A DNA stretch of 64,000 bases from an uncultured Verrucomicrobiae bacterium (GCA_963835625.1 CAWIGO010000002.1:8116-72115), one strand, 5' to 3'. Shown: positions 1,432 through 64,000, numbered from the stretch's first letter. The notes: generated by a model from the letters alone, not told the origin. Program-made: numbers and translations.

Positions 1432-2979
1432 ATGCCTAAACGGACGGACATTCATTCAGTGCTCATCATCGGCGCCGGACCGATCATCATCGGGCAGGCG
1501 TGCGAGTTCGATTATTCCGGCACGCAGGCTTGCAAGGCGCTCAAAGAGGAAGGCTATCGCGTCGTTCTCGTCAACTCCAACCCGGCCACCATCATGACCG
1601 ACCCGGAGTTCGCCGACCGCACCTACATCGAGCCGATTACACCCGAGTGCGTCGAGAAAATCATCGTGCGCGAATTGGAAGAGATGAAACGGATGGGCGT
1701 GCCTGTCGGCCAATCCGCAATCCGCAATCCGCAATCCGCAATTCCACATAAACTCGTTTTGCTCCCGACGCTCGGCGGCCAGACGGCGCTGAACACGGCG
1801 ATGGCCCTCTACCGCAGCGGCGTGCTGGATAAATACGGCGTCGAGATGATTGGCGCGAATGACAAAGCCATCGAACGCGGCGAAGACCGGCAGGTTTTCA
1901 AAGACCTTATGCTCTCCATCGGCCTCGACGTTCCGATTTCCGGCACCGCGCATAACATAGAGGAAGCCCGCGCTGTGACGGACAAGATTGGACGATTTCC
2001 TGTCATCATTCGTCCGGCGTTCACGCTGGGCGGCACCGGTGGCGGCATCGCCTATAACCGCGATGAATTCGACGAACTCGCCAGGCGCGGCATGGAGCTT
2101 TCGCCCGTCAACGAAATCCTCATCGAAGAATCGCTGCTCGGCTGGAAGGAATATGAAATGGAGGTCATGCGCGACAAAGCCGACAACTGCGTCATCATCT
2201 GCTCCATCGAGAACTTCGACCCGATGGGCGTCCACACCGGCGATTCCATCACCGTCGCGCCCATCCAGACGCTGACGGACAAGGAATTCCAGATCATGCG
2301 CGACGCCAGCTTCGCGGTGATTCGCGCGGTGGGCGTCGAGACCGGCGGCTCCAACATCCAGTTTGCCGTCAACCCGGACAACGGCCGCATGGTCATCATC
2401 GAGATGAACCCGCGCGTCAGCCGCAGCTCCGCGCTGGCGTCCAAGGCAACGGGCTTTCCCATCGCAAAAATCGCCGCCAAACTCGCCGTTGGCTACCTGC
2501 TCGACGAACTCAAAAACGACATCACGCGCGAAACCCCGGCTAGCTTCGAGCCGAGCATTGATTACGTCGTCATCAAGATTCCGCGGTTTGCCTTCGAGAA
2601 ATTCGCGCAGGCCGACCCGACTCTGACAACCCAGATGAAAAGCGTGGGCGAAGCGATGGCGATTGGCCGCACGTTCAAGGAAAGCCTGCAAAAATGCCTG
2701 CGCTCGCTGGAGATTGGTCGCAGCGGTCTGGGCGGCGACGGCAAACCCTGGCGCATCGGCACGGAAGTCTATGGCGACCGCGACATCCTGCCGAAGGACG
2801 TCATCAGCCGCAAATTGAGCGTACCGAATGCCGAACGGATTTTCTTCATCCGGCATGCATTGCGGGCAGGATTCACAATTGAGGAAATCTTCCAACTGAC
2901 CAAGATTGACAGATGGTTTTTAGTCCAAATAAAAGAAATCGTGGACTTCGAAGAAGAACTCGCCACGGCTAAACACTAA
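1432..2979 (+). CDS. carB: Carbamoyl-phosphate synthase large subunit, N-terminal half only (split CarB)
   Basis: CPSase ATP-grasp motifs ([43 protein letters not shown]). Stops at residue 515 just after the [11 protein letters not shown] motif of the oligomerisation domain. Confidence 0.9.
1712..1746. repeat. 7-bp-period tandem array (AATCCGC x4 plus one degenerate unit) inside carB
   Basis: Direct reading. Translates in frame as [11 protein letters not shown]. Confidence 0.9.
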
Positions 2980-2989
2980 AATGACCGCT

Positions 2990-3079
2990 TCATTCCGCAA
3001 TCAGCTTGGCCGCTGGTTTCTGACGCAGATCAAAGAAATCGTAGATTTTGAAGAAGAGTTGGCGGCAGCGAAGAATTAG
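2990..3079 (+). repeat. Diverged second copy of the carB-N 3' terminus (encodes [22 protein letters not shown]-stop)
   Basis: Protein-level match to the carB end ([22 protein letters not shown]-stop) with the stop codon at the equivalent position. Confidence 0.85.
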
Positions 3080-3221: not shown

Positions 3222-3777
3222 ATGAATGGGCAAATGGCGGTGGTTCCGATGGAACGAATTGAAAGGGCAATCTTCTCCATTCGCGGCGAAAAGGTGATGC
3301 TGGACAGCGATCTGGCTGAACTTTATGGGGTAGAAACGAAGGCCTTGAATCAGGCCGTCAAACGCAATGCCAATCGCTTTCCAGAAGACTTCATGTTCCA
3401 ACTCACTGCAGGTGAGGTCTTTAAGCTGAACCGGTCACAAATTGTGACCGGTTCCCAGAAGCACCGCGATCCACGTTTTCCGCCTTACGCCTTCACCGAA
3501 CATGGGGCATTGATGCTGGCTAACGTGTTGAACAGCGAGCGGGCGGCGCAAACCAGCGTTCAGGTGGTGCGTGCGTTCGTGCGGCTGACGGCAAATGCTG
3601 GCTTCCAATGCCGAATTGGCGCGGAAACTCGCGGCGGTTGAAAATAAATACGACCGACAGTTCAAAGTTGTCTTTGACGCCATCCGACAGTTAATGTCTC
3701 CACCGGAAACCAAGTGGCGCGAAATCGGATTTCATGTGAAATATGACGACGACAAGCCAAAATCAAAGAAGCGATAG
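3222..3777 (+). pseudogene. ORF6N (KilA-N-like) domain protein, frameshifted near 3590-3600
   Basis: ORFs 3222..3641 and 3595..3777 together rebuild a typical ORF6N protein (IRGEKVMLDSDLAELYGVETKALNQAVKRNANRFPEDFMFQLT ... [33 protein letters not shown]). Confidence 0.8.
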
Positions 3778-3814: not shown

Positions 3815-3880
3815 TCGTTTCTGGTGCAGGTTAAAGAGATTGTGGATTTTGAGGAAGAACTGGCGGGGGCGACGAAATGA
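3815..3880 (+). repeat. Diverged third copy of the carB-N 3' terminus (encodes [21 protein letters not shown]-stop)
   Basis: Protein-level match to the carB end with the stop at the equivalent position. Confidence 0.8.
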
Positions 3881-10382: not shown

Positions 10383-11831
10383 ATGGACGACACGAATTCA
10401 TTGATCGAACAACGCAAGGCCAAGCTGACCGCGTTGCGCGCCAAGGGCATTGACCCGTTCAAAAATAAATTCACGCCCGGCGAAACCTGCGAGCATGCGC
10501 GCGACCATTACGCCGAAGGCCGTGAAGTCGCCATTGCCGGTCGCATTACCGCGCACCGCGAGATGGGCAAAAGCATGTTCATTGACGTGCGCGACCAGAG
10601 CGGACGCATCCAGGCTTACGCGCAGAAAAATGTCCTCGGCGACGAGCAATTCGACATCTTCCGGCATCTCGACCTCGGTGATTTCATCGGCGCACGTGGA
10701 CATTTGTTCACAACCAAAACCGGTGAAATTTCCATCAAGCTCGCCAGCTTCACGATTCTGGCCAAGGCGTTGCGTCCGCCACCGGCGAAATGGTATGGAC
10801 TTGAAGACACGGAAATCCGTTACCGCCAACGTTATCTCGATTTGATGGCGAATCCAGAAGTGAAGGATGTTTTTTTCAAGCGCAGCCAAATCATCGCCGA
10901 GATCCGGAATTTTCTACATTCGCGCGGCTTTGTGGAAGTCGAGACACCGATGATGCAGGCGATTCCCGGCGGCGCGGCGGCGCAACCGTTCAAGACGCAT
11001 CACAACGCACTCGGCTGCGATTTTTATCTGCGCATTGCGCTGGAACTTTACCTTAAGCGTCTGCTTGTCGGCGGTGTGGACAAGGTTTTCGAGATTGGCC
11101 GCATCTTCCGCAACGAAGGTTTTTCGCGCAAACACAATCCCGAATTCACGATGTTGGAACTCTATCAGGCCTACGGCGATTACGAGAGCATGATGGAACT
11201 CATGCAAGGCATGGTCTGCCACGTTGCGCAAAAAGTTTTGGGCACGCTGAAAATCGAAACCAAAGACGCCGGGGGCAAGGTCACCAAAACAATTGATCTC
11301 ACGCCGAACTGGAAGCGTGTGAAATACAAGGATCTTGTGCGTGGAAAAGCGGGCGCGGATTGGTTTGACGTTTCACCAAAGGAACGGCACGAGCGCGCAA
11401 TCAAACTCGGCGCAGAGATTGCGAAGGACTACGAAGATTTTGAAGTCACACAGGCCGTATTCGAGAAGCTGATTGAACCAACACTTATCAATCCGACGTT
11501 TGTGACACACGCGCCGAAGGAATTGATTCCACTCGCCAAACTTTCACCCGACGATCCGACGACCGTCGAAGTTTTTGAGTGCTGCATCAACGGCCAGGAA
11601 ATCGCGCCTGCTTACACCGAACAGAACGACCCGATTGAGCAGCGCGAACGGCTGGAGCATCAGGCCGGCGGCGAGCAGCAAAAGCTGGATGAAGATTTTC
11701 TTGTCGCGCTCGAACATGGCATGCCTCCGGCGGGTGGCATGGGCGTGGGCATTGACCGTTTGTGCATGATGCTGCTCGGTCAGGAAAGCATCCGCGACGT
11801 GATTTTATTCCCGCAGTTGAAGCCAAAATAA
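10383..11831 (+). CDS. lysS: Lysine--tRNA ligase (class II)
   Basis: 482 aa with class II motifs ([33 protein letters not shown]). Confidence 0.95.
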   Translation: MDDTNSLIEQRKAKLTALRAKGIDPFKNKFTPGETCEHARDHYAEGREVAIAGRITAHREMGKSMFIDVRDQSGRIQAYAQKNVLGDEQFDIFRHLDLGDFIGARGHLFTTKTGEISIKLASFTILAKALRPPPAKWYGLEDTEIRYRQRYLDLMANPEVKDVFFKRSQIIAEIRNFLHSRGFVEVETPMMQAIPGGAAAQPFKTHHNALGCDFYLRIALELYLKRLLVGGVDKVFEIGRIFRNEGFSRKHNPEFTMLELYQAYGDYESMMELMQGMVCHVAQKVLGTLKIETKDAGGKVTKTIDLTPNWKRVKYKDLVRGKAGADWFDVSPKERHERAIKLGAEIAKDYEDFEVTQAVFEKLIEPTLINPTFVTHAPKELIPLAKLSPDDPTTVEVFECCINGQEIAPAYTEQNDPIEQRERLEHQAGGEQQKLDEDFLVALEHGMPPAGGMGVGIDRLCMMLLGQESIRDVILFPQLKPK

Positions 11832-11842
11832 GCTGTTAAATT

Positions 11843-12499
11843 TCAATCTTCCAACCATTCAATAATTTCGTGATCTCTACGCATATCAAATTTGGCGTAA
11901 TCTTCTCTTGAAGCATCGAATCCGTATTTCAAATGATACATAAGTGATTTTCCGTCTTCCGGATCATGTTTAAAACACACCTCATACCAAACTGTTTGCA
12001 AATTAAATTGCTGATGGAATACGTTCATAATTCCACGAATGAGTGCAAGCGCAGCTGTGATTTCTGAAAATTGAATCGTTGGCAAAGGGATTTCCTTCAT
12101 CTGCCTTAAGAGGTCGTTGTGCGCTATTTTCTCGTCACGCCAAGTTTTGACGGCTTTCATTTTCCCTTTGAGTGCTAAAATCTGTTGTGACACCTGACTT
12201 TGCAGACTTGCATCTTTAATTTCTAACACGAGATTATCAAACGACAGATTTTCTTTGACGATTGATTTAACTTTTGTTTTAGGTGGGTCTGTCAGCCTAG
12301 CGATGGAAAGAAGAATATCAAACAGCATTAAATTCCAGAGGTAGCCGAAAAATACTGGCGCTGTTTCATTCAACAATTTCACCTTCCTATCGCTGCCAAA
12401 AACCTGTTTGAAGTGTTTCCACTTGTAGTGCAATCGCACCACTTCAGCGTCAATGGCTTTGATCTTATTTTTAAGTGTGTCTGGCATATTGGCGGCCAC
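11843..12499 (-). CDS. HEPN-domain protein, AbiU2-like
   Basis: 218 aa, helical, with an R-x5-H motif (WRDEKIAHND). AT-rich. Overlaps the upstream GIY-YIG gene by 29 nt. Confidence 0.55.
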   Translation of the reverse strand: MAANMPDTLKNKIKAIDAEVVRLHYKWKHFKQVFGSDRKVKLLNETAPVFFGYLWNLMLFDILLSIARLTDPPKTKVKSIVKENLSFDNLVLEIKDASLQSQVSQQILALKGKMKAVKTWRDEKIAHNDLLRQMKEIPLPTIQFSEITAALALIRGIMNVFHQQFNLQTVWYEVCFKHDPEDGKSLMYHLKYGFDASREDYAKFDMRRDHEIIEWLED

Positions 12500-13310
12500 G
12501 TTTTAGAGTTACGCCCAAACGTCGTAGGCGACTCGATATGCCATGATGGTCTATGTTAAACAACCGCCCGATTTCGCGGCACGATTTGCCTTCTGAATGT
12601 AATTTTAGACAGGCCTGATCCATTTCTTCTGCACTATTAAAACCTAAAGATTTTCTGTTAAATTTTTCAAAATAGATTTTTCGAAGCCCTGCGGTTCTCG
12701 ATGGTAACTTTCTAATTTTATCCAAAAGCTGAACCAGCGGGTTGTAAATTTCTGGACGTTTGAGGGCTGCTGTAAAACCAGCTATGCGCTTGGCTTCATT
12801 TTCCGGCGAATGCAACCATTTTTGCGCGTTCTTTCTCCATTCTGGATTTTTTGCATGACGTTGTTTCAGTGCTTCAGAAACTCGCTTGTGAGTGTCAGGC
12901 GTCCATACGCCTCTGCGATACCCACGAATTTTCTTCTTCTGTGATTCGGTCCATTTGTAACCGCGGGTTGATTCTGCTTTTGGCGCAGAATTGAAGTTTC
13001 TCGTGTAAGCATGGAAATGATCCATCCAGAATTGTTCCCGTTCATCTAACCGTTTGCTCTCGCCAACCTTTTCCAACAAAATAGCTGTGAAAGCTCCTTG
13101 GCCATATTTGTTCCATGCTCTTTGCAAATGTCTTGAGTGATGTCGTTTTGCTAGAAGCGCCCGTAAATGCTGGTTGAGCCGCTTCCGAACAATTTTCGAG
13201 CTGCCAACATAGATTCTGCCACTGGCATCGTGCCGGATGCCATAAACGCCACAACATTGGAAATCAATTGATAAGCGATTGTTGAATATGCTTTCAATTA
13301 TTCCGAGCAT
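12471..13310 (-). CDS. GIY-YIG homing-type endonuclease (I-TevI/Seg-like architecture with a C-terminal HTH)
   Basis: GVYGI...RIYVGSS, conserved R (KRLNQHLR), E (REQFWMDHF), and a C-terminal HTH (SCREIGRLFNIDHHGISSRLRRLG). Confidence 0.8.
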   Translation of the reverse strand: MLGIIESIFNNRLSIDFQCCGVYGIRHDASGRIYVGSSKIVRKRLNQHLRALLAKRHHSRHLQRAWNKYGQGAFTAILLEKVGESKRLDEREQFWMDHFHAYTRNFNSAPKAESTRGYKWTESQKKKIRGYRRGVWTPDTHKRVSEALKQRHAKNPEWRKNAQKWLHSPENEAKRIAGFTAALKRPEIYNPLVQLLDKIRKLPSRTAGLRKIYFEKFNRKSLGFNSAEEMDQACLKLHSEGKSCREIGRLFNIDHHGISSRLRRLGVTLKRGRQYARHT

Positions 13311-13323
13311 GGTAGAAGTTTAA

Positions 13324-13482
<159 letters not shown>

Positions 13483-19290: not shown

Positions 19291-21083
19291 GAAACGCCAT
19301 GAACTCAAAATCAAAAATCACCCTGCTCATCATTTTGCTGGCGGCAGCCGTCGGCATCGGCCTTTTCGCCGCCGGTTGTTCCAAGCCAACAGACAAGGCC
19401 GCTGCTGCGACGCAGACCAAAACGCTCTACACCTGCGGCATGCATCCGCAGGTTATCCAGGATCATCCGGGCAACTGCCCGATTTGCGGCATGAAGCTGA
19501 CGCCCATTCGTAAACAGGCCGTCAGCGGCGCCTCGACCGCAACCGGGGTGCACAAAATCAAATACTACAAGTCCACGATGATGCCGGGTGAAGTGCGGCA
19601 GACTCCAGGCAAGGACAGCATGGGCATGGACATGGTGCCGGTTTACGAAGACGAAGCATCGGCGGCAGAATCATCCGCCATCGAGATTGACCCGGTGACG
19701 ATGCAGAACATGGGCATTCGAACGGCGACTGTCACACGCGGGCCGTTGCGCCGGGCCATCCGCACAGTCGGCGTGATTGATTACGATGAGACGACGCTGG
19801 CGGACGTGACGACCAAGTTCAAAGGCTGGATTGAGAAGCTGTACGTGAACGCCACGGGCCAGTTGGTGATCGCGGCGATCCGCTGTTTGAGATTTATTCG
19901 CCCGAACTTTACAGCGCGCAAGTCGAATATCTGCATTGTGACTGATCCTGCAAATAAAGCCGGCGCGGGCAGCGATGCGCTCAAAGCCTCGGCGCTGACG
20001 AAGTTGAAATTCTTCGACATCTCCGACGAGCAAATCGCCGAGTTGGAACGAACCCGGCAAGCGCGCAAAACCTTGCGCATCCTGGCGCCGCAGGACGGAT
20101 TCGTGATCGAAAAAAACATCGTCGAAGGCCAGATGGTGGATGCCGGCATGAAGATTTACCGGCTGGCCGATTTCGGATTGGTCTGGGTGCAGGCGCAGAT
20201 TTACGAACAGGATTTGGCTTACCTCAAGCTCGGCCAGGAGGCGACAGTCACACTGTCCTATCTGCCCGACCGCGAATTCCGCGGGCGAGTAACCTACATT
20301 TATCCGAATGTGGACGAGAAAACGCGCACGGCGAAAGTGCGGATGGAGTTTCACAATCCCGGCTATTTCCTCAAGCCCGGCATGTTTGCAACAGTTCAAG
20401 TCACATCCGAGTTGGAACCTTCGGTGTTGCTCGTGCCGGATATGGCGGTGCTGCGCAGCGGCGAGAAAAACGACCGTCTTCGTCGCTCTGGACGGCGGCA
20501 AGTTCGAGCCGCGCACAGTCACGCTCGGCCCGCAGGCCGAGAACGACATGTATCAGGTGTTGAGCGGATTGAACGAAGGCGAGCGCATCGTCACGTCCGG
20601 GCAGTTCATGCTCGATTCGGAAAGCCAGCTGCGCGAGGCGATCCAGAAAATGCTGAAGCCAAACAAATCCGGCACTTCCGCGCCGGTGGGCCAGGACGAA
20701 CGCGACGGTTACAGGTTTAACCAATCAGGAGGCGACGTCCGAAGAAGCAGCTCCCGTGAAATACATCTGCCCGATGCCGGAGCATGTCTCCATCGAATAC
20801 GATCATCCCGGCAAATGTCCCGATTTGCGGCATGACGCTGGTGCCCGTGTCCGCAAGCGAACCTGCAAGCAAGCTGCAGCCCGGCGGGAAGATTCTTTAC
20901 TACACCTGCCCGATGCCGGAGCACAGCGACGTGCGTTCCGACAAACCGGGCAAATGCCCCAAGTGCGGCATGACACTCATTCCGGTGATGGAAGCGCCTC
21001 CGCAGCCGAGGTCCGCCTCGCAATCTCCCGTTGGTGATGAAACCATGCCCGAAGGGATGGTCATGCCTGAACCGCAGCATTAA
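19287..21083 (+). pseudogene. RND membrane-fusion protein (CusB/CzcB-like) with CxxC metal-binding domains, about 5 frameshifts
   Basis: The reading frame must switch near 19868, 19935, 20468, 20700-20750 and 20820 to keep the homologous sequence (DPLFEIYSPELYSAQVEYL; TVFVALDGGKFEPRTVTLG; YICPMPEH..GKCPICGM; YYTCPMPEH..GKCPKCGM). Confidence 0.75.
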
Positions 21084-25497: not shown

Positions 25498-26643
25498 ATG
25501 GCGAGGACCTTTCGTGTCGGCCTAATCGGCTACCGCTTCATGGGCAGGGCGCACTCGAATGCCTGGCGGCAGGCGCCACGCTTCTTCAATCTCAAGGCGA
25601 ATGTCGAGATGCACACCCTATGCGGGCGCGATGTGGTAGGGGTGCAAATGGCGCGCGCACAACTCGGCTGGCAGAACACCACGACGGATTGGCGCGAAAT
25701 TGTCGAATCGCCGCTGATTGACATCGTGGACATCGTCACGCCGACGAATTTTCACGCGGAAATGGCGATTGCCGCGGTGAAAAACGGCAAGCACGTTTTG
25801 TGCGAAAAGCCGCTGGCGCTGAATCTCAAACAGGCCGAGGCGATGTTCGCCGCCGCGCACAAGGCGAAGGTCGTCCACATGGTCTGCCACAATTACCGGC
25901 GCATTCCGGCAATCGCGCTGGCGAAGCGGATGATTGGCGAAGGCGCGCTGGGCCGGATTTTTCATTTTCACGCGCGTTACGCGCAGGACCGGCTGGCCGA
26001 CCCGGAATTTCCGCTGGACTGGCGTTTGCAAAAGGAGACCAGCGGCTGTGGCGTCCACAGCGACATCAATTCGCACGTCATTGATTTGGGGCGTTACCTC
26101 GTCGGCGAATTCAAGGAGGTCTGCGGGTTGCTGAACACGTTTATACCGGAACGTCCGCTGGCGGATGCGCTGGCCAAAGGCGCGCGCAGGATGGGCAAGG
26201 TCACCGTGCCGGACTCCGCAATGTTCATCGGGCGGATGGAAAATGGCGTGCTGGCGAACGTGGAAGCCACGCGCTACGCGCTCGGCCGCAAGAACCACAT
26301 CGCTGTCGAAATCAACGGAAGCAAAGGCTCGATCTATTTTGATTTTGAGGACATGAACCGGCTGAAATTTTACAATGGCGACGACCCGAAAGACCGGCGG
26401 GGTTTCCGCGACATTCTCGTGACGGAGCGCGACGGCGTGCAACCGTATGTCGGCCATTGGTGGCCGCCGGGACACGGCATCGGCTACGAACACACGTTCA
26501 TTCATGTGGTCGCCGATTTTGTGAACGCCTGCGTCGAGAGGAAACCGGCGCAACCAACTTTTGAGGATGGCTTGAAAAATCAGCGCGTGCTCGCCGCCGT
26601 CGAGGAATCGGCCAAAACCGGCAAATGGGTGAAATTGAAATGA
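25498..26643 (+). CDS. Gfo/Idh/MocA family oxidoreductase
   Basis: N-terminal Rossmann VGLIGYRFMGRAH and an EKP motif (VLCEKPLA). Confidence 0.85.
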   Translation: MARTFRVGLIGYRFMGRAHSNAWRQAPRFFNLKANVEMHTLCGRDVVGVQMARAQLGWQNTTTDWREIVESPLIDIVDIVTPTNFHAEMAIAAVKNGKHVLCEKPLALNLKQAEAMFAAAHKAKVVHMVCHNYRRIPAIALAKRMIGEGALGRIFHFHARYAQDRLADPEFPLDWRLQKETSGCGVHSDINSHVIDLGRYLVGEFKEVCGLLNTFIPERPLADALAKGARRMGKVTVPDSAMFIGRMENGVLANVEATRYALGRKNHIAVEINGSKGSIYFDFEDMNRLKFYNGDDPKDRRGFRDILVTERDGVQPYVGHWWPPGHGIGYEHTFIHVVADFVNACVERKPAQPTFEDGLKNQRVLAAVEESAKTGKWVKLK

Positions 26644-26698
26644 TTTGACCCGCCCGTCCGCGCGCCGGTGCGCATTGAAAAAGGCCGCTGGTCATTGT

Positions 26699-26735
26699 GC
26701 CCGCGTGGCGAAATTGGCAGACACGCCAGATTCAG
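26699..26735 (+). pseudogene. tRNA-Leu 5' half remnant (acceptor, D arm and anticodon stem up to CAG)
   Basis: GCCCGCGTGGCGAAATTGGCAGACACGCCAGATTCAG aligns to the first 37 nt of the intact tRNA at 27232, then the similarity stops. Confidence 0.85.
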
Positions 26736-26891
26736 TTTTTTACGTTCACCATTTTTAGAGGACATCTCCGCGTTTCAATGAGAGCGATAATGGCGGGGAT
26801 TTTGCAAAGTTATAAATAATTCTATACAGGCTGAAGAATGTGTTATAAACGGCATTAACCCATTAAAAACCATCGTGAATGAAACCAAAAT

Positions 26892-27092: not shown

Positions 27093-27176
27093 TGTTTGAG
27101 GCGGCGGCTCAGCCGGTGCTCAAGGCGGTGTGTCGAAGAATCGTCCAAAGCCGGCAAGTGGGTGAAATTGGAATGA
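27093..27176 (+). pseudogene. Diverged, frameshifted copy of the oxidoreductase 3' terminus
   Basis: Encodes LFEAAAQPVLKAV / (1-nt shift) / VEESSKAGKWVKLE-stop, against TFEDGLKNQRVLAAVEESAKTGKWVKLK-stop in the gene. Confidence 0.8.
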
Positions 27177-27231
27177 TTTGGCTTGCCCGTTCATGCGGTG
27201 GCGCGTATTGAAAGAAGCTGCCGGTCATCGT

Positions 27232-27316
27232 GCCCGCGTGGCGGAATTGGCAGACGCGCTAGATTCAGGTTCTAGTGGGTAACACCATACAGGTTCAAAT
27301 CCTGTCGCGGGCACCA
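27232..27316 (+). tRNA. tRNA-Leu (anticodon CAG), type II with a long variable arm and encoded CCA
   Basis: Manual fold: acceptor GCCCGCG/CGCGGGC, anticodon stem CTAGA/TCTAG with loop TTCAGGT, T arm ACAGG-TTCAAAT-CCTGT. Confidence 0.9.
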
Positions 27317-57159: not shown

Positions 57160-57222
57160 TCAGTTTTAAGTTTTCAGTTTCAAGTTCTAAAACTGAACAC
57201 TGGAAACTTCAGACTTGAAACT
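57160..57222. repeat. Inverted pair of 7-bp-period arrays (CAGTTTT-type x4 / AAAACTG-type x5)
   Basis: Direct reading. Lies immediately after the dnaA stop, so it could act as a hairpin terminator. Confidence 0.7.
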
Positions 57223-58586
57223 TATCTCATCAATTGCTTTTCGATGTAATGGACGACCTGACGGACGTTGGCGTCCACTTCCATGCGGTCTTTGACGAGG
57301 CGGCAGGCGTGCATCACCGTGCCGTGATCGCGCCCGCCGTAGGCTTCGCCGATGGAGTTGAGCGAACTTTCGGTCATCCGACGCGAAAGATACATGGCGA
57401 TTTGGCGCGGGAAAGCGATGTTTTCCGGGCGGCGCTTGCTGGTCATGTCGGCAAGGCGAATGTCAAAATGTTCCGCGACTTTCTTCTGAATGACTTCGAT
57501 GCTGATGGAAAAACGGCCTTCTTCGTGAAGGATTTCACGCAGCAAGCCTTCGACGACCTCGATGCTGAGTTTCTTGCCGGTGAGCGAAGCGTAGGACGCC
57601 ACGCGGATGAGCGCGCCTTCGAGCCGGCGGACATTGGTGCGGATGCGGTTGGCCAGAAAATTCATAATGTCATCCGACAGCGTCACGCCCATAATCTGCG
57701 CCTTTTTGTTGAGAATGGCCAGGCGCACTTCGACGTCCGGCGGCTGCAAATCCGTCACCAAGCCCCATTCGAAACGCGAGACGAGGCGGTGTTCGAGCCC
57801 CTGAATCTCGCTGGCCGGGCGGTCGCACGTGAGCACGATTTGCTTGTGCGATTCGTGAAGCGCGTTGAAGGTATGGAAAAATTCCTCCTGAATCCGTTCC
57901 TTGCCGGCTAGAAACTGGATGTCGTCAATCAACAGCACGTCGGTCTGGCGGTATTTTTTGCGGAATTTGACGAGTTGGTTGTTTTGGATTCCGTCAATGT
58001 ATTCGTTGGTGAACTTCTCCGAGGATAAATAGGCGACGTGCGCACCTTTCCTGTTGCTGACAACATACTGGCCGATGGCGTGAAGCAGGTGTGTCTTGCC
58101 GAGACCCACACCCCCGTAAAGGAAAAGCGGGTTATAGGATTTGCCGGGCGCTTGGGCGACGGCGAGCGCGGCGGCGTAGGCAAAGTTATTGTTATTGCCA
58201 ACAACAAAGGCTTCGAACGTGTTCTTGGGATTAAAACCAAATTCGCCATTGTGTGTTGCTCGTTCGTGGCTGGAGCCAGCAGCTTTTGTTGTTTTCGCCG
58301 GTGCTGGAGAAAGTGCAGCGGCGGGGTGAACATTTCCGCCGGCAATTTTGAATTTTACCTGCAATTGGCGGCCAGCGGCCACAGCCAGGGCATCTTGCAA
58401 CAGGCTGAGGTAATTGTCCTTAAGCCAGACTTCGCAGAATTCGTTGGCCACTTCCAAAGTGACGTGGTTGGAATCAATCGCATTGGCTCGCAACGGAGCA
58501 AACCACATGTTGTAAGTGTCTGCGTTCAACTTGGAACGGAGATGTTCCTGCGCCGAATTCCAAATTTTTTCTGCTGAAAGCTGCAT
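57222..58586 (-). CDS. dnaA: Chromosomal replication initiator protein DnaA
   Basis: Walker A GGVGLGKTHL, LLIDDIQF, and domain IV (IAFPRQIAMYL...SL..IG..YGGRDHGTVMHA). Confidence 0.96.
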   Translation of the reverse strand: MQLSAEKIWNSAQEHLRSKLNADTYNMWFAPLRANAIDSNHVTLEVANEFCEVWLKDNYLSLLQDALAVAAGRQLQVKFKIAGGNVHPAAALSPAPAKTTKAAGSSHERATHNGEFGFNPKNTFEAFVVGNNNNFAYAAALAVAQAPGKSYNPLFLYGGVGLGKTHLLHAIGQYVVSNRKGAHVAYLSSEKFTNEYIDGIQNNQLVKFRKKYRQTDVLLIDDIQFLAGKERIQEEFFHTFNALHESHKQIVLTCDRPASEIQGLEHRLVSRFEWGLVTDLQPPDVEVRLAILNKKAQIMGVTLSDDIMNFLANRIRTNVRRLEGALIRVASYASLTGKKLSIEVVEGLLREILHEEGRFSISIEVIQKKVAEHFDIRLADMTSKRRPENIAFPRQIAMYLSRRMTESSLNSIGEAYGGRDHGTVMHACRLVKDRMEVDANVRQVVHYIEKQLMR

Positions 58587-59040: not shown

Positions 59041-59478
<438 letters not shown>

Positions 59479-59531: not shown

Positions 59532-62435
59532 ATGGACTATAAAAACACATTGAATTTGCCGCGCACCGATTTCCCAATGAGGGCCGATTTGGTGGCGCGC
59601 GAGCCTGAACGGTTGAAAAAGTGGGGGGCGGCGAGGCTTTACGAAAAAATCCAGGCTGACCACGCCAATGTGAAGGAAAAGTTTGTCCTGCACGATGGTC
59701 CGCCGTTTGCCAACGGCGACGTGCACATCGGCACCGCGCTGAACAAGATTCTCAAGGATATCATCGTCAAATACAAGACCTTGCGTGGCTTCAGCACGCC
59801 CTACATTCCGGGTTGGGATTGCCACGGATTGCCCATCGAATTCAAGGTTTCACAGGAGATGCGGAAAGGCCAGAAGTCAGAAGTCGGAAGTCAGAAGCCG
59901 GATCCCGATCGATTTTCGCCGTCCGCGATTCGCAAAGCTTGCGAAGCTTACGCCCGCAAGTTCATTGACATCCAGCGAACTCAATTCAAACGGCTCGGCG
60001 TGCTCGGCGATTGGGACAATCCCTATCTCACATTCAATAAAGAATACGAGGCCGACGAACTGCGCCTGTTCGCCGACATCGTTGAAAAGGGTTTTATCTA
60101 TCGCGGCAAAAAGCCGGTTTACTGGAGCATCCCTTGCCACACCGCGCTGGCTGAAGCCGAGGTCGAATATCAAGACCACGTTAGCCCCAGCATCTATGTA
60201 AAATTTCCGGTCGTCGGCCAGTCAAAAACTTTTATCCTGATCTGGACGACCACTCCATGGACTCTGCCGGCGAATCTCGCGGTGGCTTACAATTCGAAGT
60301 TCCAATACGTGAAGGTCCGCGTCGGCGATGAAAATTACATTCTGTTCCGCGGTCTGCTGGCCGCTGTCGCGGGAAAATGCGGTTGGAGCAATTGCAAAGA
60401 ACAACCGTTTCCAACCAAAAAGCTTGCTGTGCTGCAGTTTCAGCATCCATTCTGTAGTCGCACTGGCAGGTTTTATCCCGCTGACTTTGTTGCCAGCGAC
60501 ACTGGCACGGGCTTCGTCCATATCGCACCGGGACACGGCTTGGAGGACTATCAACTCGGCTCATCTGTCGGTCTGCCGATTTATTCGCCGGTGGATGATG
60601 ATGGTAAGTTCATGCACACGAACGATTTGCCCGTTGAGCAACAGATGCCGTCAGAGATGGTTGGCAAATCCATCCTCGAAAAACATGGCAAGAGCGATGC
60701 GAACGAAGCAGTGCTACATGAACTGCGCGTTCGTAAGGCGCTGTTGCACCAGGAAGATTATCACCACAGCTATCCGCATTGCTGGCGCAGCAAAACGCCA
60801 ATCATTTTCCGCGCAATGGATCAATGGTTCATCGAAATTGACCATGAGAAATTCCGTGACCGTGCTCTGGCAGAAATTGACCGCGTGAACTGGATTCCCG
60901 ATTGGAGCGTCAATCGAATTAAAAGTGCCGTGCAAACTCGTCCCGACTGGTGCATCTCGCGCCAGCGCACTTGGGGTGTGCCGATTCCCGCGTTCTACGA
61001 TGCGAAAGGAAATCCGATTCTCGATGCACAAATTGTTCGCAACGCGGCTGATTTGATTGAAAAGCATGGTTCAAATATCTGGTTCGAAAAATCCGCTGCG
61101 GAACTTTGGTCGCTGGTGAAACCGAAGAATTGGAATGGACCAGAAGCCGTCACCAAATCCAACGACACATTGGATGTGTGGATCGATTCGGGAAGTTCGT
61201 CGCGAAGTGTGCTGATGCGGCGGACGGAACTCCATCATGAGGTAGGGCGCGCTGTCCCCAGCGCGCCGCGGCGCAGTGAGAACACTGCGCCCTACCAGGC
61301 TTGGCAAGCCGACATTTATTTCGAAGGCTCCGACCAGCATCGCGGCTGGTTTCAATCGTCACTGCTGCTGTCACTCGCGGGCAACGGGGCCGCGCCGTTT
61401 AAGACGGTGCTTACGCACGGATTCATGGTGGATGCCGACCGCGAAAAGATTTCCAAGAGCAAACAAAGCCAGGGCGGCTACGAAAAACCGCAGACATCCG
61501 AAGCCTATGTGAAGAAATGGGGCGCGGATATTGTGCGCCTGTGGGTTTCGTCGCAGGATTTTCGCAACGACATCATTGTGAGCGAGGAGCGCATCAACAA
61601 GGTGGCCGAGACCTACCGCGTCATCCGCAACGCGCTGCGTTATCAACTTTCGAACCTTTACGACTTCGATCCGGCAAAACACACCGTGCCGGACGACAAG
61701 CTCACCGGTCTCGACCGCTGGATTCTCGGCGAATTCTCGAAACTGGAGCGGGAAGTCATCGAGGCTTACGATAAATACGAATTTCACGTCGTCTATCAGG
61801 AGGTCAGCCAGTTCATTGCTGTTGAGTTGTCCTCGATTTACCACGACGTCATCAAAGACCGGCTTTACACCGACCCGGCGAATTCGCATCGCCGCCGCTC
61901 GACGCAGACGGCGTTGCACCGGCTCGTGACCGGCCTGTGCCAGATGCTCGCGCCGGTTCTGGCGTTCACGGCAGACGAAGCGTGGGAGTTTGTGCCGGGG
62001 AAAAAGGTGAATTCCGTTCATAAAGCGAATTGGAAACTAATTAAATTCTCGCTGACGGGATCTGAAATAGAAGATTGGGAATATTTATTCGTAGCGCGCG
62101 AAATCTGGTTGCCAATGTTGGAACAGAAACGTCGCGACAAAACTATCGGGAAATCTCTGGACGCTAAAATCCGACCTGTAACCGAACAAATGCCAGAATT
62201 GGCAAATAGCGAAAAACTTCAAGACACATTCAAAGAGTTGTTGAATGTTTCGCAGCTTGAATTTTTATCTTACAAAGGCAATCCAGAAGCCGATTTTACA
62301 GGCAAATTAGTCGTTCATGCTGATGGGCAAAAATGCGAGCGTTGTTGGCATTGGGAAACCGATATCGGTCAGAACAAGGAACATCCGACGCTTTGCGGTC
62401 GTTGTGTCGAGGCGGTGATTCAATTTAAGACGTAA
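59532..62435 (+). CDS. ileS: Isoleucine--tRNA ligase
   Basis: HDGPPFANGDVHIGT (HIGH), KISKSK (KMSKS), EGSDQHRGWF, C-terminal Cys cluster CERCWH...CGRC. Confidence 0.96.
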   Translation: MDYKNTLNLPRTDFPMRADLVAREPERLKKWGAARLYEKIQADHANVKEKFVLHDGPPFANGDVHIGTALNKILKDIIVKYKTLRGFSTPYIPGWDCHGLPIEFKVSQEMRKGQKSEVGSQKPDPDRFSPSAIRKACEAYARKFIDIQRTQFKRLGVLGDWDNPYLTFNKEYEADELRLFADIVEKGFIYRGKKPVYWSIPCHTALAEAEVEYQDHVSPSIYVKFPVVGQSKTFILIWTTTPWTLPANLAVAYNSKFQYVKVRVGDENYILFRGLLAAVAGKCGWSNCKEQPFPTKKLAVLQFQHPFCSRTGRFYPADFVASDTGTGFVHIAPGHGLEDYQLGSSVGLPIYSPVDDDGKFMHTNDLPVEQQMPSEMVGKSILEKHGKSDANEAVLHELRVRKALLHQEDYHHSYPHCWRSKTPIIFRAMDQWFIEIDHEKFRDRALAEIDRVNWIPDWSVNRIKSAVQTRPDWCISRQRTWGVPIPAFYDAKGNPILDAQIVRNAADLIEKHGSNIWFEKSAAELWSLVKPKNWNGPEAVTKSNDTLDVWIDSGSSSRSVLMRRTELHHEVGRAVPSAPRRSENTAPYQAWQADIYFEGSDQHRGWFQSSLLLSLAGNGAAPFKTVLTHGFMVDADREKISKSKQSQGGYEKPQTSEAYVKKWGADIVRLWVSSQDFRNDIIVSEERINKVAETYRVIRNALRYQLSNLYDFDPAKHTVPDDKLTGLDRWILGEFSKLEREVIEAYDKYEFHVVYQEVSQFIAVELSSIYHDVIKDRLYTDPANSHRRRSTQTALHRLVTGLCQMLAPVLAFTADEAWEFVPGKKVNSVHKANWKLIKFSLTGSEIEDWEYLFVAREIWLPMLEQKRRDKTIGKSLDAKIRPVTEQMPELANSEKLQDTFKELLNVSQLEFLSYKGNPEADFTGKLVVHADGQKCERCWHWETDIGQNKEHPTLCGRCVEAVIQFKT
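59872..59899. repeat. 7-bp-period tandem array (AGAAGTC-type, 4 units) inside ileS
   Basis: agaagtc agaagtc ggaagtc agaagcc. In frame as QKSEVGSQK. Confidence 0.85.
61241..61296. repeat. REPIN inserted in frame within ileS
   Basis: GGTAGGGCGCGCTGTCCCCAGCGCGCC + GCGGCGCAGTGAGAACACTGCGCCCTACC. Terminal GGTAGGGCGC/GCGCCCTACC inverted repeat and two internal hairpins. Translates as EVGRAVPSAPRRSENTAPYQ. Confidence 0.85.
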
Positions 62436-62455
62436 AAAGAAAATGCAAAATCCAA

Positions 62456-63313
62456 TTACGCATACAGTCCGTCAACCTGCAACAACGCTAGTTGCGGTGG
62501 CAACCATTCGCTGCCAAGCAATTTGGCGTTCTTACTTTCGTTGCACTGTCCACATGACATGCAAATATTTTCTGGGGAATGCGACCCGCCACGAGCTAAA
62601 GCTACGATGTGTTCAACGTGCATGTTCTTTGTCAAAAACCTCTTGGCACAATATGCACAATCGGCGTGCCTATGTGACAGCATTTGAATGATTTTAAGAT
62701 CGGCGGCTTTAATTTGTTCGGGCGTGCTGTTTTTATATTTGCGGGCGCGGCGGCGATGCCCTTTGGCGCGCACCTTGTCGGGATTGTTAGCCGCCCACCT
62801 TGCGTTAATTATTTTCTTAAAATCTCGGTTTTCAGACCGCCATTTCGCCGAATATTTGACGTTTCTTTCAGGGTGTTGTTTATTCCATTCTTGAATTCTG
62901 GATAGCACCTGATTCCTATTTTTAAGATAATATTTTTTGACAGAGGCTATCTTCTGCCGCCTTACTTCGAGATAATGTTTTGCATCGTATATTTTCTTCC
63001 GCTTGTTATTTTCAGGGTGGGCAGCTTTATACGTCGGCCATTTCGCTAAAATCGCGCCGCGATTTTTGGCATACCACGCCGCGTTTGTGGCTTTGCGCCT
63101 TTCCTTATTTTCCGCCCGCCATTTCGCATCAGCGGCTTTTTTTCGCTCCTTATTTTCACTGACCCATTTCCGGTTACTTGATCTCTCACGATCCTTGTTT
63201 TCGAGATAACGCTTTATCCTATTTGCTTTCTGCGTTGCCCGATTATTTGCATACCATCTTACTTGATAGTCTTTCTGCTTTTTTCTTTGTTCGGGCGAGA
63301 GGATACGTTTCAC
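62456..63313 (-). CDS. HNH endonuclease with a long N-terminal array of ~15-aa basic (W/Y)xxxN repeats
   Basis: HNH core HVEHIVALARGGSHSPENICMSCGQCNESK. About 10 repeat units such as WVSENKERKKAADAK and WRAENKERRKATNAA. AT-rich. Convergent with ileS. Confidence 0.8.
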   Translation of the reverse strand: MKRILSPEQRKKQKDYQVRWYANNRATQKANRIKRYLENKDRERSSNRKWVSENKERKKAADAKWRAENKERRKATNAAWYAKNRGAILAKWPTYKAAHPENNKRKKIYDAKHYLEVRRQKIASVKKYYLKNRNQVLSRIQEWNKQHPERNVKYSAKWRSENRDFKKIINARWAANNPDKVRAKGHRRRARKYKNSTPEQIKAADLKIIQMLSHRHADCAYCAKRFLTKNMHVEHIVALARGGSHSPENICMSCGQCNESKNAKLLGSEWLPPQLALLQVDGLYA

Positions 63314-63399
63314 AATTTTGACTTTGCGCCGGGCAAAAATTTTGTCCAGAAAAAATCACACCGGCTGCTGCTGCGTGAGGCGTGCAACGAACCGACAAC

Positions 63400-63560
63400 A
63401 AACCAAGCCCCGTCAGGGGCGACATATTTGTAGAAATCGCATCCCAAAACATTTCCAAGCTCCGTCAGGAGCGGCATATTCCGTTCGCCACCAGACGATG
63501 CCGCTTCTGACGGAGCTTGGGATTTCTACAAAACGCAAAACTACAAATATGCCGCGCCTA
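63400..63560. repeat. MITE-like hairpin repeats (CCGTCAGGAGCGGCATAT family)
   Basis: ccaagctccgtcaggagcggcat (63451-) and atgccgcttctgacggagcttgg (-63517) form an inverted repeat. Related half-sites lie at about 63400-63440 and 63535-63560. Confidence 0.6.
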
Positions 63561-63565
63561 CGGCG

Positions 63566-63610
63566 CTTTGCGGCCGTTGTGTCAAAGCAGTAAAACGGTT
63601 CAAGGCATAA
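63566..63610 (+). pseudogene. Diverged second copy of the ileS 3' terminus
   Basis: Encodes (PTA)LCGRCVKAVKRFKA-stop against (HPT)LCGRCVEAVIQFKT-stop at 62391-62435. About 33/45 nt identical by hand count, with the stop aligned. Confidence 0.6.
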
Positions 63611-63682
63611 ACGTGTCACAGACCTCTGGTCTGTATTTCCAACCCCTCACAGGCGTGACGCCCGTGCCACATTTTCGCTCGC

Positions 63683-64000
63683 CTAAAACCCGCCGCCCTT
63701 GTTGTTGATGAAGCTGATGCGGTTGGTGCTGCTGAAAGAGTTGGCTTGGGAAGTGTTCAGGAACCGGCAATTGGCGACGGTCACGTCCGTAATCGGGTTC
63801 GCAGAACTCAATCCCTGGAGATAAATCGCCTGCTTCACATTGGCAAAGGCGCAATCGCGGATGTCAATGTTGTGAATGACCGGCGTGTTCGTGCCCGTGT
63901 TGGCCGGGGAAGAGGAAGTATACTGCATCGTCATGTGAATGCCGGTTGTCTTGATAATTTTTAACATGCAGTTGCGAAAGTAAATGTTTGCAATATAACC
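63683..64000 (-). CDS. Right-handed beta-helix (pectin-lyase fold / GH28-like) protein, C-terminal part; the gene continues beyond the window
   Basis: The frame is open to position 64000, with periodic N/I/V beta-helix rungs (IHNIDIRDCAF, ITDVTVANCRF). Confidence 0.45.
   Translation of the reverse strand, partial: GYIANIYFRNCMLKIIKTTGIHMTMQYTSSSPANTGTNTPVIHNIDIRDCAFANVKQAIYLQGLSSANPITDVTVANCRFLNTSQANSFSSTNRISFINNKGGGF

Follow-up and report, generated by a model that had tools for sequence, protein, structure and literature searches.

Several described systems combine a nuclease with the transfer or replacement of gene sequence. In the mobile open reading frames (mORFs) of fungal mitochondria, known from atp6 of Allomyces macrogynus and from atp6, atp9, cox2, and nad3 of Glomus sp., an endonuclease open reading frame (ORF) comes together with a foreign C-terminus for the host gene, and the native C*-terminus is left downstream (PMC3630166). 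Free-standing homing endonucleases of T4-like phages (SegA to SegG and MobA to MobE) perform "intronless homing," in which break repair is accompanied by co-conversion of flanking markers (PMC2330249, PMC2790892). Synthetic home-and-rescue (HomeR) and Cleave-and-Rescue drives link a nuclease directed against an essential gene to a replacement of the targeted part (PMC7968924, PMC6442612), and homology-facilitated illegitimate recombination inserts foreign DNA that is anchored by homology at one end and joined without it at the other, while DNA of the recipient is lost (PMC3240628). Here, we analyze a stretch of 64,000 nucleotides (nt) from an uncultured soil bacterium of the Verrucomicrobiae (GCA_963835625.1, CAWIGO010000002.1:8116-72115; the window), in which ileS, the essential gene for isoleucyl-tRNA synthetase, is followed by a convergent gene for an HNH endonuclease and then by a displaced terminus of ileS itself. 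This structural description, first given in a sequence-only reading of the window, is upheld by our analysis; the history that we propose for it, a horizontal replacement of the ileS end that left the older terminus behind, is very probable, and a role of the HNH protein in driving that replacement is put forward more tentatively.

A layout in which a gene end is replaced has so far been described mainly in fungal mitochondria, and no precedent on a bacterial chromosome that combines a nuclease cassette with a duplicated aminoacyl-tRNA synthetase terminus was found in the full-text literature searched, which is not proof of absence. As in the mORFs, the endonuclease ORF appears to travel with a foreign C-terminal part of the host gene, and the native end, which in mORFs persists as an unexpressed downstream duplicate, follows it, the order here being foreign tail (62000-62435), HNH gene (62456-63313), and remnant (63568-63610). 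Inserted and native ends of mORF-bearing genes differ mostly at synonymous positions, and the host gene is a horizontally acquired hybrid. The present locus departs from this model in lying on a bacterial chromosome and in an aminoacyl-tRNA synthetase gene, in carrying an HNH nuclease (GIY-YIG at lysS, discussed below) where mORFs encode LAGLIDADG or GIY-YIG enzymes fused in frame, and in the antisense, convergent orientation of the nuclease gene, whereas mORFs are read in the direction of the host gene and often in its frame. In addition, the remnant measures merely 43 nt, and the right-hand join appears illegitimate and includes a stub of a gene that neighbors the slot in the donor.

The displaced terminus occupies 63568..63610 on the plus strand and comprises the last 13 codons and the stop of an ileS gene in a non-functional form. 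A repeat finder aligns 62386-62436 and 63561-63611 with 75% identity along 51 nt, both stop codons falling in register. When the last 60 nt of ileS were aligned locally against all downstream sequence, the score of 24 lay clearly beyond the background of 1,000 dinucleotide shuffles (mean 10.4, standard deviation 1.2, maximum 15), and 121 other blocks of the window all stayed below it. The segment 63568-63610 matches the ileS end at 31 of 43 nt (72%), the runner-up 43-mer on either strand of the 64-kb window reaching 23, and the placement-corrected binomial P is ~4e-7. The peptide of the remnant reads CGRCVKAVKRFKA before its stop, as compared to CGRCVEAVIQFKT at the end of ileS, and ileS termini of other Verrucomicrobiota resemble the remnant equally well or better than the window's own gene does, for example that of L010 (...CGRCVEAVKQFKA, again followed by a stop). 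The remnant is a real ileS terminus and neither a chance resemblance nor a piece of another conserved element. The sequence-only reading had drawn the copy as 45 to 55 nt long; the match as such is real, and its first 7 nt together with the residues PTA belong instead to an adjoining palindromic element.

The functional ileS gene (59532..62435, plus strand) encodes 967 amino acids (aa) with the Pfam domains tRNA-synt_1, Anticodon_1, and zf-FPG_IleRS, and it falls into two parts of different affinity. Its 5' part of ~2.2 kb (59532..61720, plus strand) belongs to the native lineage, with 86-88% nt identity to the closest relative, L001, and 75-80% to all other relatives. The 3' part (61721..62435, plus strand) is apparently imported and consists of donor backbone (61721-62000) and a cassette-borne tail (62000-62435), the latter coding for the C-terminal domain and zinc finger of IleS. 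A maximum chi-square test on the sites at which L001 and L081, the second carrier of the HNH gene described below, differ, with 1,000 permutations, places the breakpoint at 61715-61725 (chi-square 204 versus a permutation maximum of 18.6; 0/1000). Upstream of 61720, 282 of 379 informative sites are L001-like and 97 L081-like; downstream, 180 of 206 are L081-like and 26 L001-like. Over 62000-62300, identity amounts to 96% with L081 and 47-56% with L001, and no other locus gives a nucleotide match. As the earlier description of an AT-rich segment had it, the GC content is 0.40-0.47 over 62000-63350 versus 0.52-0.59 in the flanks. Mosaic structure, identity, and GC content together indicate that the C-terminal domain and zinc finger are foreign and that the IleS of this organism is a chimera. 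As for the donor lineage of the tail, the best match besides L081 reaches 69% aa identity and lies on a 1.4-kb contig. A 206-aa "fragment," P0147, was considered as a further remnant and rejected, as it is read as a product of assembly frameshifts, its ileS and dnaA both being split by gene calls.

These observations bear directly on the idea that the ileS end was duplicated, as it was first described. One version of this idea would have the end duplicated in tandem in place, with later HNH insertion and decay of one copy, and another would attribute the second end to chance; the shortness of the similarity (43 nt) and its level of only 72% could be cited in favor of either. Chance is excluded by the shuffle, block, and 43-mer statistics given above. 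Regarding duplication, the tail of the working gene does not stem from this lineage, being only 47-56% identical to L001 over 62000-62300 and near-identical to the tail of a distant genome, and therefore the two ileS-end copies are not derived from each other in this genome. Furthermore, the copies of gene ends found at lysS and carB differ almost solely at synonymous sites, as two alleles would that each evolved as coding sequence. We thus regard duplication in place or chance as most improbable, and the ends do not reflect duplication on the spot: a foreign ileS tail adjoins a native terminus.

Comparison with related genomes adds both parental states of the site. A scan with one genome per species gave 80 ileS loci, all from Verrucomicrobiota of the Limisphaerales/Pedosphaera type, and none of the 80 has an HNH relative at ileS. 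In L001, the closest relative (97% aa identity for DnaA, 96% for P-II, and 89% for the downstream beta-helix protein), the site is empty, and ileS and the convergent beta-helix gene have their stops ~20 nt apart. The homology of the window with L001 at the nucleotide level breaks off within ileS and resumes at 63679, in a native intergenic region with two short hairpins (63611..63682) that precedes the 3' part of the beta-helix gene (63683..64000, minus strand; 89% aa and 91% nt identity to L001), the native convergent neighbor of ileS. A distance of 72 nt separates the remnant stop at 63610 from the stop of this gene, and the remnant therefore occupies the position at which the ileS end is expected in this lineage, as the empty site of L001 also indicates. 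Directly upstream of ileS are dnaA (57222..58586, minus strand) and a P-II gene (59041..59379, minus strand), an order that is kept in L001, L002, L081, and L099; on this basis, the ileS locus probably lies near the replication origin.

An occupied site is found in L081, a European Nucleotide Archive contig that carries the one close relative of the HNH protein retrieved by protein search (P0001, 98% aa identity). Its HNH gene is convergent with ileS at a gap of 20 nt, as in the window. The backbones of L081 and the window share 78-80% nt identity, as compared to 88-100% over ~61800-63376 and 96-100% over 62000-63376. The nearest relative of L081 is L002, with ~91% backbone identity; the ileS genes of these two are 94-99% identical up to ~62000 and 51-62% thereafter, where L081 is instead 97-99% identical to the window. 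Since the left breakpoints differ (~61720 in the window and ~62000 in L081), the tract was apparently acquired independently in the two lineages, and sequence comparison thus indicates that at least two diverged lineages of Verrucomicrobiota each took up a core unit of ileS tail plus HNH gene (~62000-63365) on separate occasions. A 1374-nt short-read contig from a third sample, L100, is 100% identical to 61992-63365 of the window, and both of its ends coincide with the edges of the cassette core. Such ends hint at branching of the assembly graph, with the cassette possibly present in more than one genomic background of that sample.

At the right-hand side, the imported sequence can be followed to its last nucleotides. 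Directly 5' of the HNH start lies a motif, TTTCACAAWTTYGACTTTGCGCCNGGCAARAATTTTGTCCAGAAAAAATCAC (63306..63360), which also occurs in L081 (two copies) and in L002, there with other cargo; in both genomes, its counterpart stands between the cargo and a PAD_porph (agmatine-deiminase-type) gene. The motif belongs to the backbone of the donor lineage and presumably serves as a promoter or leader for the antisense cargo. It is followed by a frameshifted stub of a PAD_porph gene 3' end (63361..63402, minus strand), which aligns, with a 1-nt deletion, to the true PAD_porph 3' end of L002 and L081 (...SLHCLTQQQPA, then stop). In L002, L081, and L099, the ileS slot has this gene as its convergent neighbor, and the window contains no PAD_porph gene. 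Because the tract ends in a stub of the donor's PAD_porph gene and the recipient's neighbor is the beta-helix gene, the right join is non-homologous. On this comparison, the imported tract would run from ~61720 to ~63402, would derive from an L002/L081-type genome, and would have ended inside the donor's neighbor gene; the native remnant would have survived because this join was illegitimate. A separate gene-end duplication is seen at the other side of the slot in L081, where, between 6851 and 7540 of the reverse complement, the HNH-upstream motif and the last ~35 nt of PAD_porph each occur twice, the two PAD_porph ends (~83% alike) flanking a different palindromic element.

Taken together, we consider it very probable, from the sequence comparisons above, that 63568-63610 is an ileS terminus left behind, which predates a horizontal replacement by a foreign tract of ~1.7 kb (~61720-63402). 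The tract would have entered by a homologous crossover within ileS at the left and a non-homologous join at the right, bringing with it the donor's last 0.7 kb of ileS, the HNH gene, its upstream motif, and a PAD_porph stub of ~40 nt. Of the native ileS, the part from the crossover to a point 43 nt before the stop would have been lost, and a palindrome now lies at the join.

This palindrome (63403..63567, 165 nt) is a nested structure that resembles a miniature inverted-repeat transposable element (MITE), composed of the inverted repeats I1, I2, and I6 reported by the repeat finder. Its DNA fold of -57 kcal/mol (z = -8.1) agrees with the MITE-like hairpins noted from sequence alone, and it sits precisely at the join of donor and native DNA. 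The right end is conserved (...GCCGCGCCTACGGCGCT) and takes in 63561-63567 (CGGCGCT), the 7 nt that had been counted with the ileS-end copy. By blastn, homologues were found in L012 (9553-9716, 85%) and L095 (3503-3653, 71%); within the 64-kb window there is no further copy, and the 19-nt repeat unit is absent elsewhere in the window and in the first 82 loci. The element thus has inverted repeats and relatives in two other genomes, but it occurs only once in the 64 kb, and no target-site duplication was seen at 63403-63567. In all three genomes, the palindrome family adjoins variable cargo, being located 3' of ileS in the window and L012 and upstream of a GIY-YIG gene and AbiU2 in L095. An origin of the palindrome by fold-back copying of the PAD_porph stub was considered and dropped, as homologous elements exist in other genomes.

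The position of the palindrome invites the question of a dedicated recombinase or transposase, in the form of an integrase islet at a gene 3' end, an integron-like cassette with a palindrome, or MITE-borne capture. Integration at the 3' end of a gene with restoration of that end is well known from elements at tRNA and tmRNA genes, and the 165-nt palindrome at the exact join, recurring beside the post-ileS cargo of L012 and the GIY-YIG cassette of L095, would fit such a process. Against this, no integrase or transposase ORF is present between ileS and the beta-helix gene, and the two ileS ends have no long identical core in common, being 72% identical with exact runs of at most 9-10 nt. In addition, the palindrome is found upstream of the HNH gene, from which donor backbone separates it, and is absent from the L081 cassette. 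An enzyme of this kind thus appears very unlikely to have moved the tract.

A candidate driver is the HNH endonuclease, encoded at 62456..63313 on the minus strand. Its gene is intact, encodes 285 aa, and is convergent with ileS across a spacer of 20 nt between the stops (62436..62455) that is identical in L081, in line with what was read from the sequence at first. Pfam HNH_5 (2.5e-11) and HNH (3.2e-10) both score above their cutoffs. The protein is composed of basic helical repeats (aa 7-213) and a C-terminal zinc-bound beta-beta-alpha HNH domain (aa 219-265), in which all family-invariant Cys, His, and Asn residues are present (C219, C222, H232, H235, N249, C257, and N258). The N-terminal ~200 residues form basic W/Y-x3-N repeats, which an AlphaFold2 model arranges as stacked helical hairpins (mean predicted local distance difference test score, 85); Foldseek found no solved analogue of this repeat domain. 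The best Protein Data Bank match of the model is the Gme HNH nicking endonuclease (4h9d), at a marginal E value of 0.036. With small phage HNH nicking enzymes (Gme HNH 4h9d and the HK97 gp74 type), the protein shares the zinc-bound beta-beta-alpha core and relatives in phage head modules; unlike them, it has ~200 N-terminal residues of basic helical repeats, and its gene has no adjacent terminase gene. The distant relatives of the HNH protein are all in phage-like contigs, within head and tail modules. There are no paralogues within the 64-kb window, and no relatives were confirmed in Joint Genome Institute (JGI) metagenome contigs or in IMG/VR. Two independent ileS-linked copies have been found, those of the window and L081. 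They differ at 10 of 858 nt (98.8% nt identity), and the ORF is unbroken in the window, L081, and L100. A promoter and terminator scan gave signals at background level.

Other assignments were considered for the cassette. A Septu PtuB or other defense HNH was rejected, as the weak matches are confined to the HNH domain (E value, 2e-8) and a gene for the partner ATPase PtuA is absent nearby. No Rfam model of a group I or group II intron was found anywhere in the window, and ileS is complete upstream of the cassette; 62000-64000 gives sub-threshold noise only, and the whole window gives tRNA-Leu only.

It can be hypothesized that the HNH protein is a homing endonuclease of the free-standing type and drove the exchange, a proposal that draws on sequence and on analogy with known systems and that we would place a shade below an even judgment. 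The enzyme would nick or cut ileS alleles that lack the HNH gene, within the conserved zinc-finger codons ...CCGACGATTTGCGG..., near the start of the remnant. The break would then be repaired from a cassette-bearing copy, the gene tail being co-converted along with the nuclease gene, so that the essential gene would stay intact and turn cut-resistant, as in a natural "home-and-rescue" design. In the lineage of the window, the right flank of the donor would have had no homologue, and end-joining to the broken native terminus would have produced the remnant. The locus has traits of homing. Presence and absence are polymorphic at ileS, with the window and L081 occupied, L001 empty, and other cargo in L002, L012, and L099, and ileS is a mosaic in both carriers, with a shared foreign tail and left breakpoints at ~61720 and ~62000, as would be expected of co-conversion. 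Homing is favored here because an intact nuclease lies at the exchanged unit, uptake was repeated across ~20% divergence, a parallel exists at lysS, and the fungal mORFs provide a precedent.

Likewise, the stand-alone nuclease genes of T4-like phages lie among or beside conserved genes and give co-conversion tracts of varying length. Those enzymes act between co-infecting phages, with homology on both sides and without a duplicated gene end, whereas here the chromosomes are ~20% diverged and homing is what we infer. The engineered HomeR and Cleave-and-Rescue drives follow the same design logic but are Cas9-based and operate in diploid animals, and the tail of the window would have to be resistant to the HNH enzyme for the likeness to be complete.

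Passive horizontal replacement would account for much of the same anatomy. Here, DNA uptake would be followed by RecA-dependent recombination anchored in ileS and by an illegitimate join at the other end, with the HNH gene as mere cargo, be it a phage relic or a selfish or defense gene in a post-ileS slot that turns over frequently. With one end homologous and the other not, with recipient DNA lost, and with a foreign stub included, the locus matches homology-facilitated illegitimate recombination (PMC3240628). That process describes an outcome and not an element, and the recurrence of a nuclease core at the same gene end is unexplained by it. The same 1.3-kb core is present at the same gene end in two lineages, with differing breakpoints and 99% identity against a backbone divergence of 20%, which is more than neutral turnover would readily yield. 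A nuclease gene is moreover found at the exchanged segment at both ileS and lysS, and the GIY-YIG gene at lysS is of a homing family and recurs at lysS elsewhere. Finally, the remnant starts within the most conserved codons of the tail, the expected place for a sequence-specific cut. We consider replacement without any contribution of the nuclease possible but somewhat doubtful.

Several findings nevertheless weigh against homing or against the history in which it is set, and some of them speak for passive replacement. Unrelated, non-nuclease cargo occupies the post-ileS slot in L002 (8956-10241, two antisense ORFs of no known kind), L012 (8888-9469, a 193-aa ORF), L099 (7697-10257, DUF4410 and a periplasmic-binding protein), and L027 (8902-11226), and because of this variety the post-ileS site may be a general recombination hotspot. 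In L027, three small membrane-protein ORFs are followed by a 61-nt copy of the ileS end (~84% identical), with a PemK toxin pair adjacent; this independent duplicate, 2.3 kb downstream, arose at a site with no nuclease gene between the copies. In L081, no ileS remnant is present 3' of the HNH gene (scores of 15 or less), which may be understood from its flanks being homologous on both sides. L100 has the same sequence as the window and so is not a third independent occupied site. The HNH family has no close characterized homing member, its best structural match being the small phage nicking enzyme mentioned above, and the differences between the two HNH copies (7 non-synonymous to 3 synonymous) show no sign of purifying selection, which also speaks for passive replacement. 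The remnant, in turn, is no closer to the terminus of L001, itself atypical, than to termini of other lineages, so that its designation as native is supported by position alone.

A further point of this kind is a hypervariable patch of 136 nt in the imported tail (62289..62424, plus strand), which covers zinc-finger codons and includes the stretch to which the remnant corresponds. The window and L081 (5834-5969 of the reverse complement) differ here at 30 of 136 nt, with 22 codons affected synonymously and 6 non-synonymously, while both flanks are 99-100% identical. Neither version resembles the nearest relative of its host, and both carrier alleles depart by 1-2 nt from the empty-site consensus CCGACGATTTGCGG, the sole hint that a carrier allele might escape cleavage directed at alleles lacking the gene. 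A divergent patch within near-identical cassettes is not predicted by simple homing. It could have been converted from a third allele, or it could reflect patchy repair or a target-immunity polymorphism. Natural transformation is reported to give discontinuous donor segments and patchy repair (PMC13344027), and passive replacement could account for the patch in this way. With these points taken into account, we judge the explanation as a whole, that is, the replacement history jointly with the HNH protein as its driver, to be evenly poised between right and wrong.

The parallel at lysS was confirmed by a mechanical scan of the window for gene ends that recur downstream, and it agrees with the initial description of one shared layout at both genes. 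The end of lysS (10383..11831) is recopied at 13348-13482, where 126 of 135 nt are identical (93%). Between the copies, and antisense to lysS, lie a HEPN_AbiU2 gene (11843..12499) and a GIY-YIG gene (12471..13310), the latter assigned to TIGR01453 (group I intron endonuclease) with 86.8 bits against a cutoff of 56. The two lysS ends differ by 7 synonymous codons and 1 non-synonymous codon. An 80%-identical GIY-YIG gene is found at a lysS-type gene in three other metagenomic contigs (L092-L094), followed by an open-frame remnant of 376 nt with 63 synonymous and 20 non-synonymous codon differences, and a 62%-identical relative, together with AbiU2, abuts a gene of the GluRS/GlnRS type (L096-L098). 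A repeated link of one nuclease lineage to one target gene is therefore present for GIY-YIG at lysS. The excess of synonymous differences implies that each copy has its own history as coding sequence, in a lineage other than that of its counterpart, and thus supports replacement of the gene end over local duplication.

On a more speculative level, the ileS and lysS loci could belong to a class of natural "home-and-rescue" cassettes in Verrucomicrobiota, with HNH at ileS and GIY-YIG at lysS and at the GluRS/GlnRS-type gene, a generalization that we hold to be conceivable rather than probable. Unrelated families of homing endonucleases would in this case invade genes for essential aminoacyl-tRNA synthetases at the 3' end, each bringing a replacement tail, with HEPN AbiU2 as a sometime passenger. 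Every invasion would create a chimeric synthetase and possibly a remnant terminus, and it might transfer defense cargo across ~20% divergence; the 136-nt patch would then be a target-immunity polymorphism.

Repeated gene ends of other kinds are also present in the window. The end of a gene for the N-terminal part of carB (1432..2979) is present three times, each copy closed by a stop (2929-2979, 3029-3079, and 3830-3880), and the copies differ mainly at synonymous sites. An ORF6N (anti-repressor-like) gene (3222..3641) stands between the second and third copies; the C-terminal part typical of its family seems to run on in another frame to ~3776, and the gene is apparently frameshifted. The 3' end of a GFO/IDH/MocA oxidoreductase gene is duplicated together with a spacer and the 5' half of tRNA-Leu(CAG) (~26596-26738 and ~27129-27271). 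The insert between these copies measures ~390 nt, with one small ORF recognized by eye, and the upstream tRNA copy is truncated in the anticodon loop, the intact tRNA being located at 27232-27316. No nuclease gene lies between the copies of either the carB or the oxidoreductase/tRNA-Leu repeats. The pair 20761-20835 and 20901-20973, a hit of the mechanical scan, was rejected as a gene-end remnant, as it represents two tandem heavy-metal-binding domains (YxCPMxPE...GKCPxCGM) after a gene of the HlyD/CusB type.

Even if the replacement at ileS was passive, the locus would preserve with unusual clarity a natural case of recombination that was homologous on one side and illegitimate on the other; the stub from the donor, the remnant of the recipient, and the two parental forms of the site can all be recognized. 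Should the nuclease be the driver, homing endonucleases could spread among cellular chromosomes with no need of an intron or intein, by supplying a replacement end for an essential gene, which is the same solution as that adopted in engineered, resistance-proof gene drives. Small defense genes such as AbiU2 could then hitch-hike on such cassettes, and ileS, lysS, and similar core translation genes would be routinely chimeric in these bacteria, with consequences for phylogenies and for quality checks of metagenome-assembled genomes.

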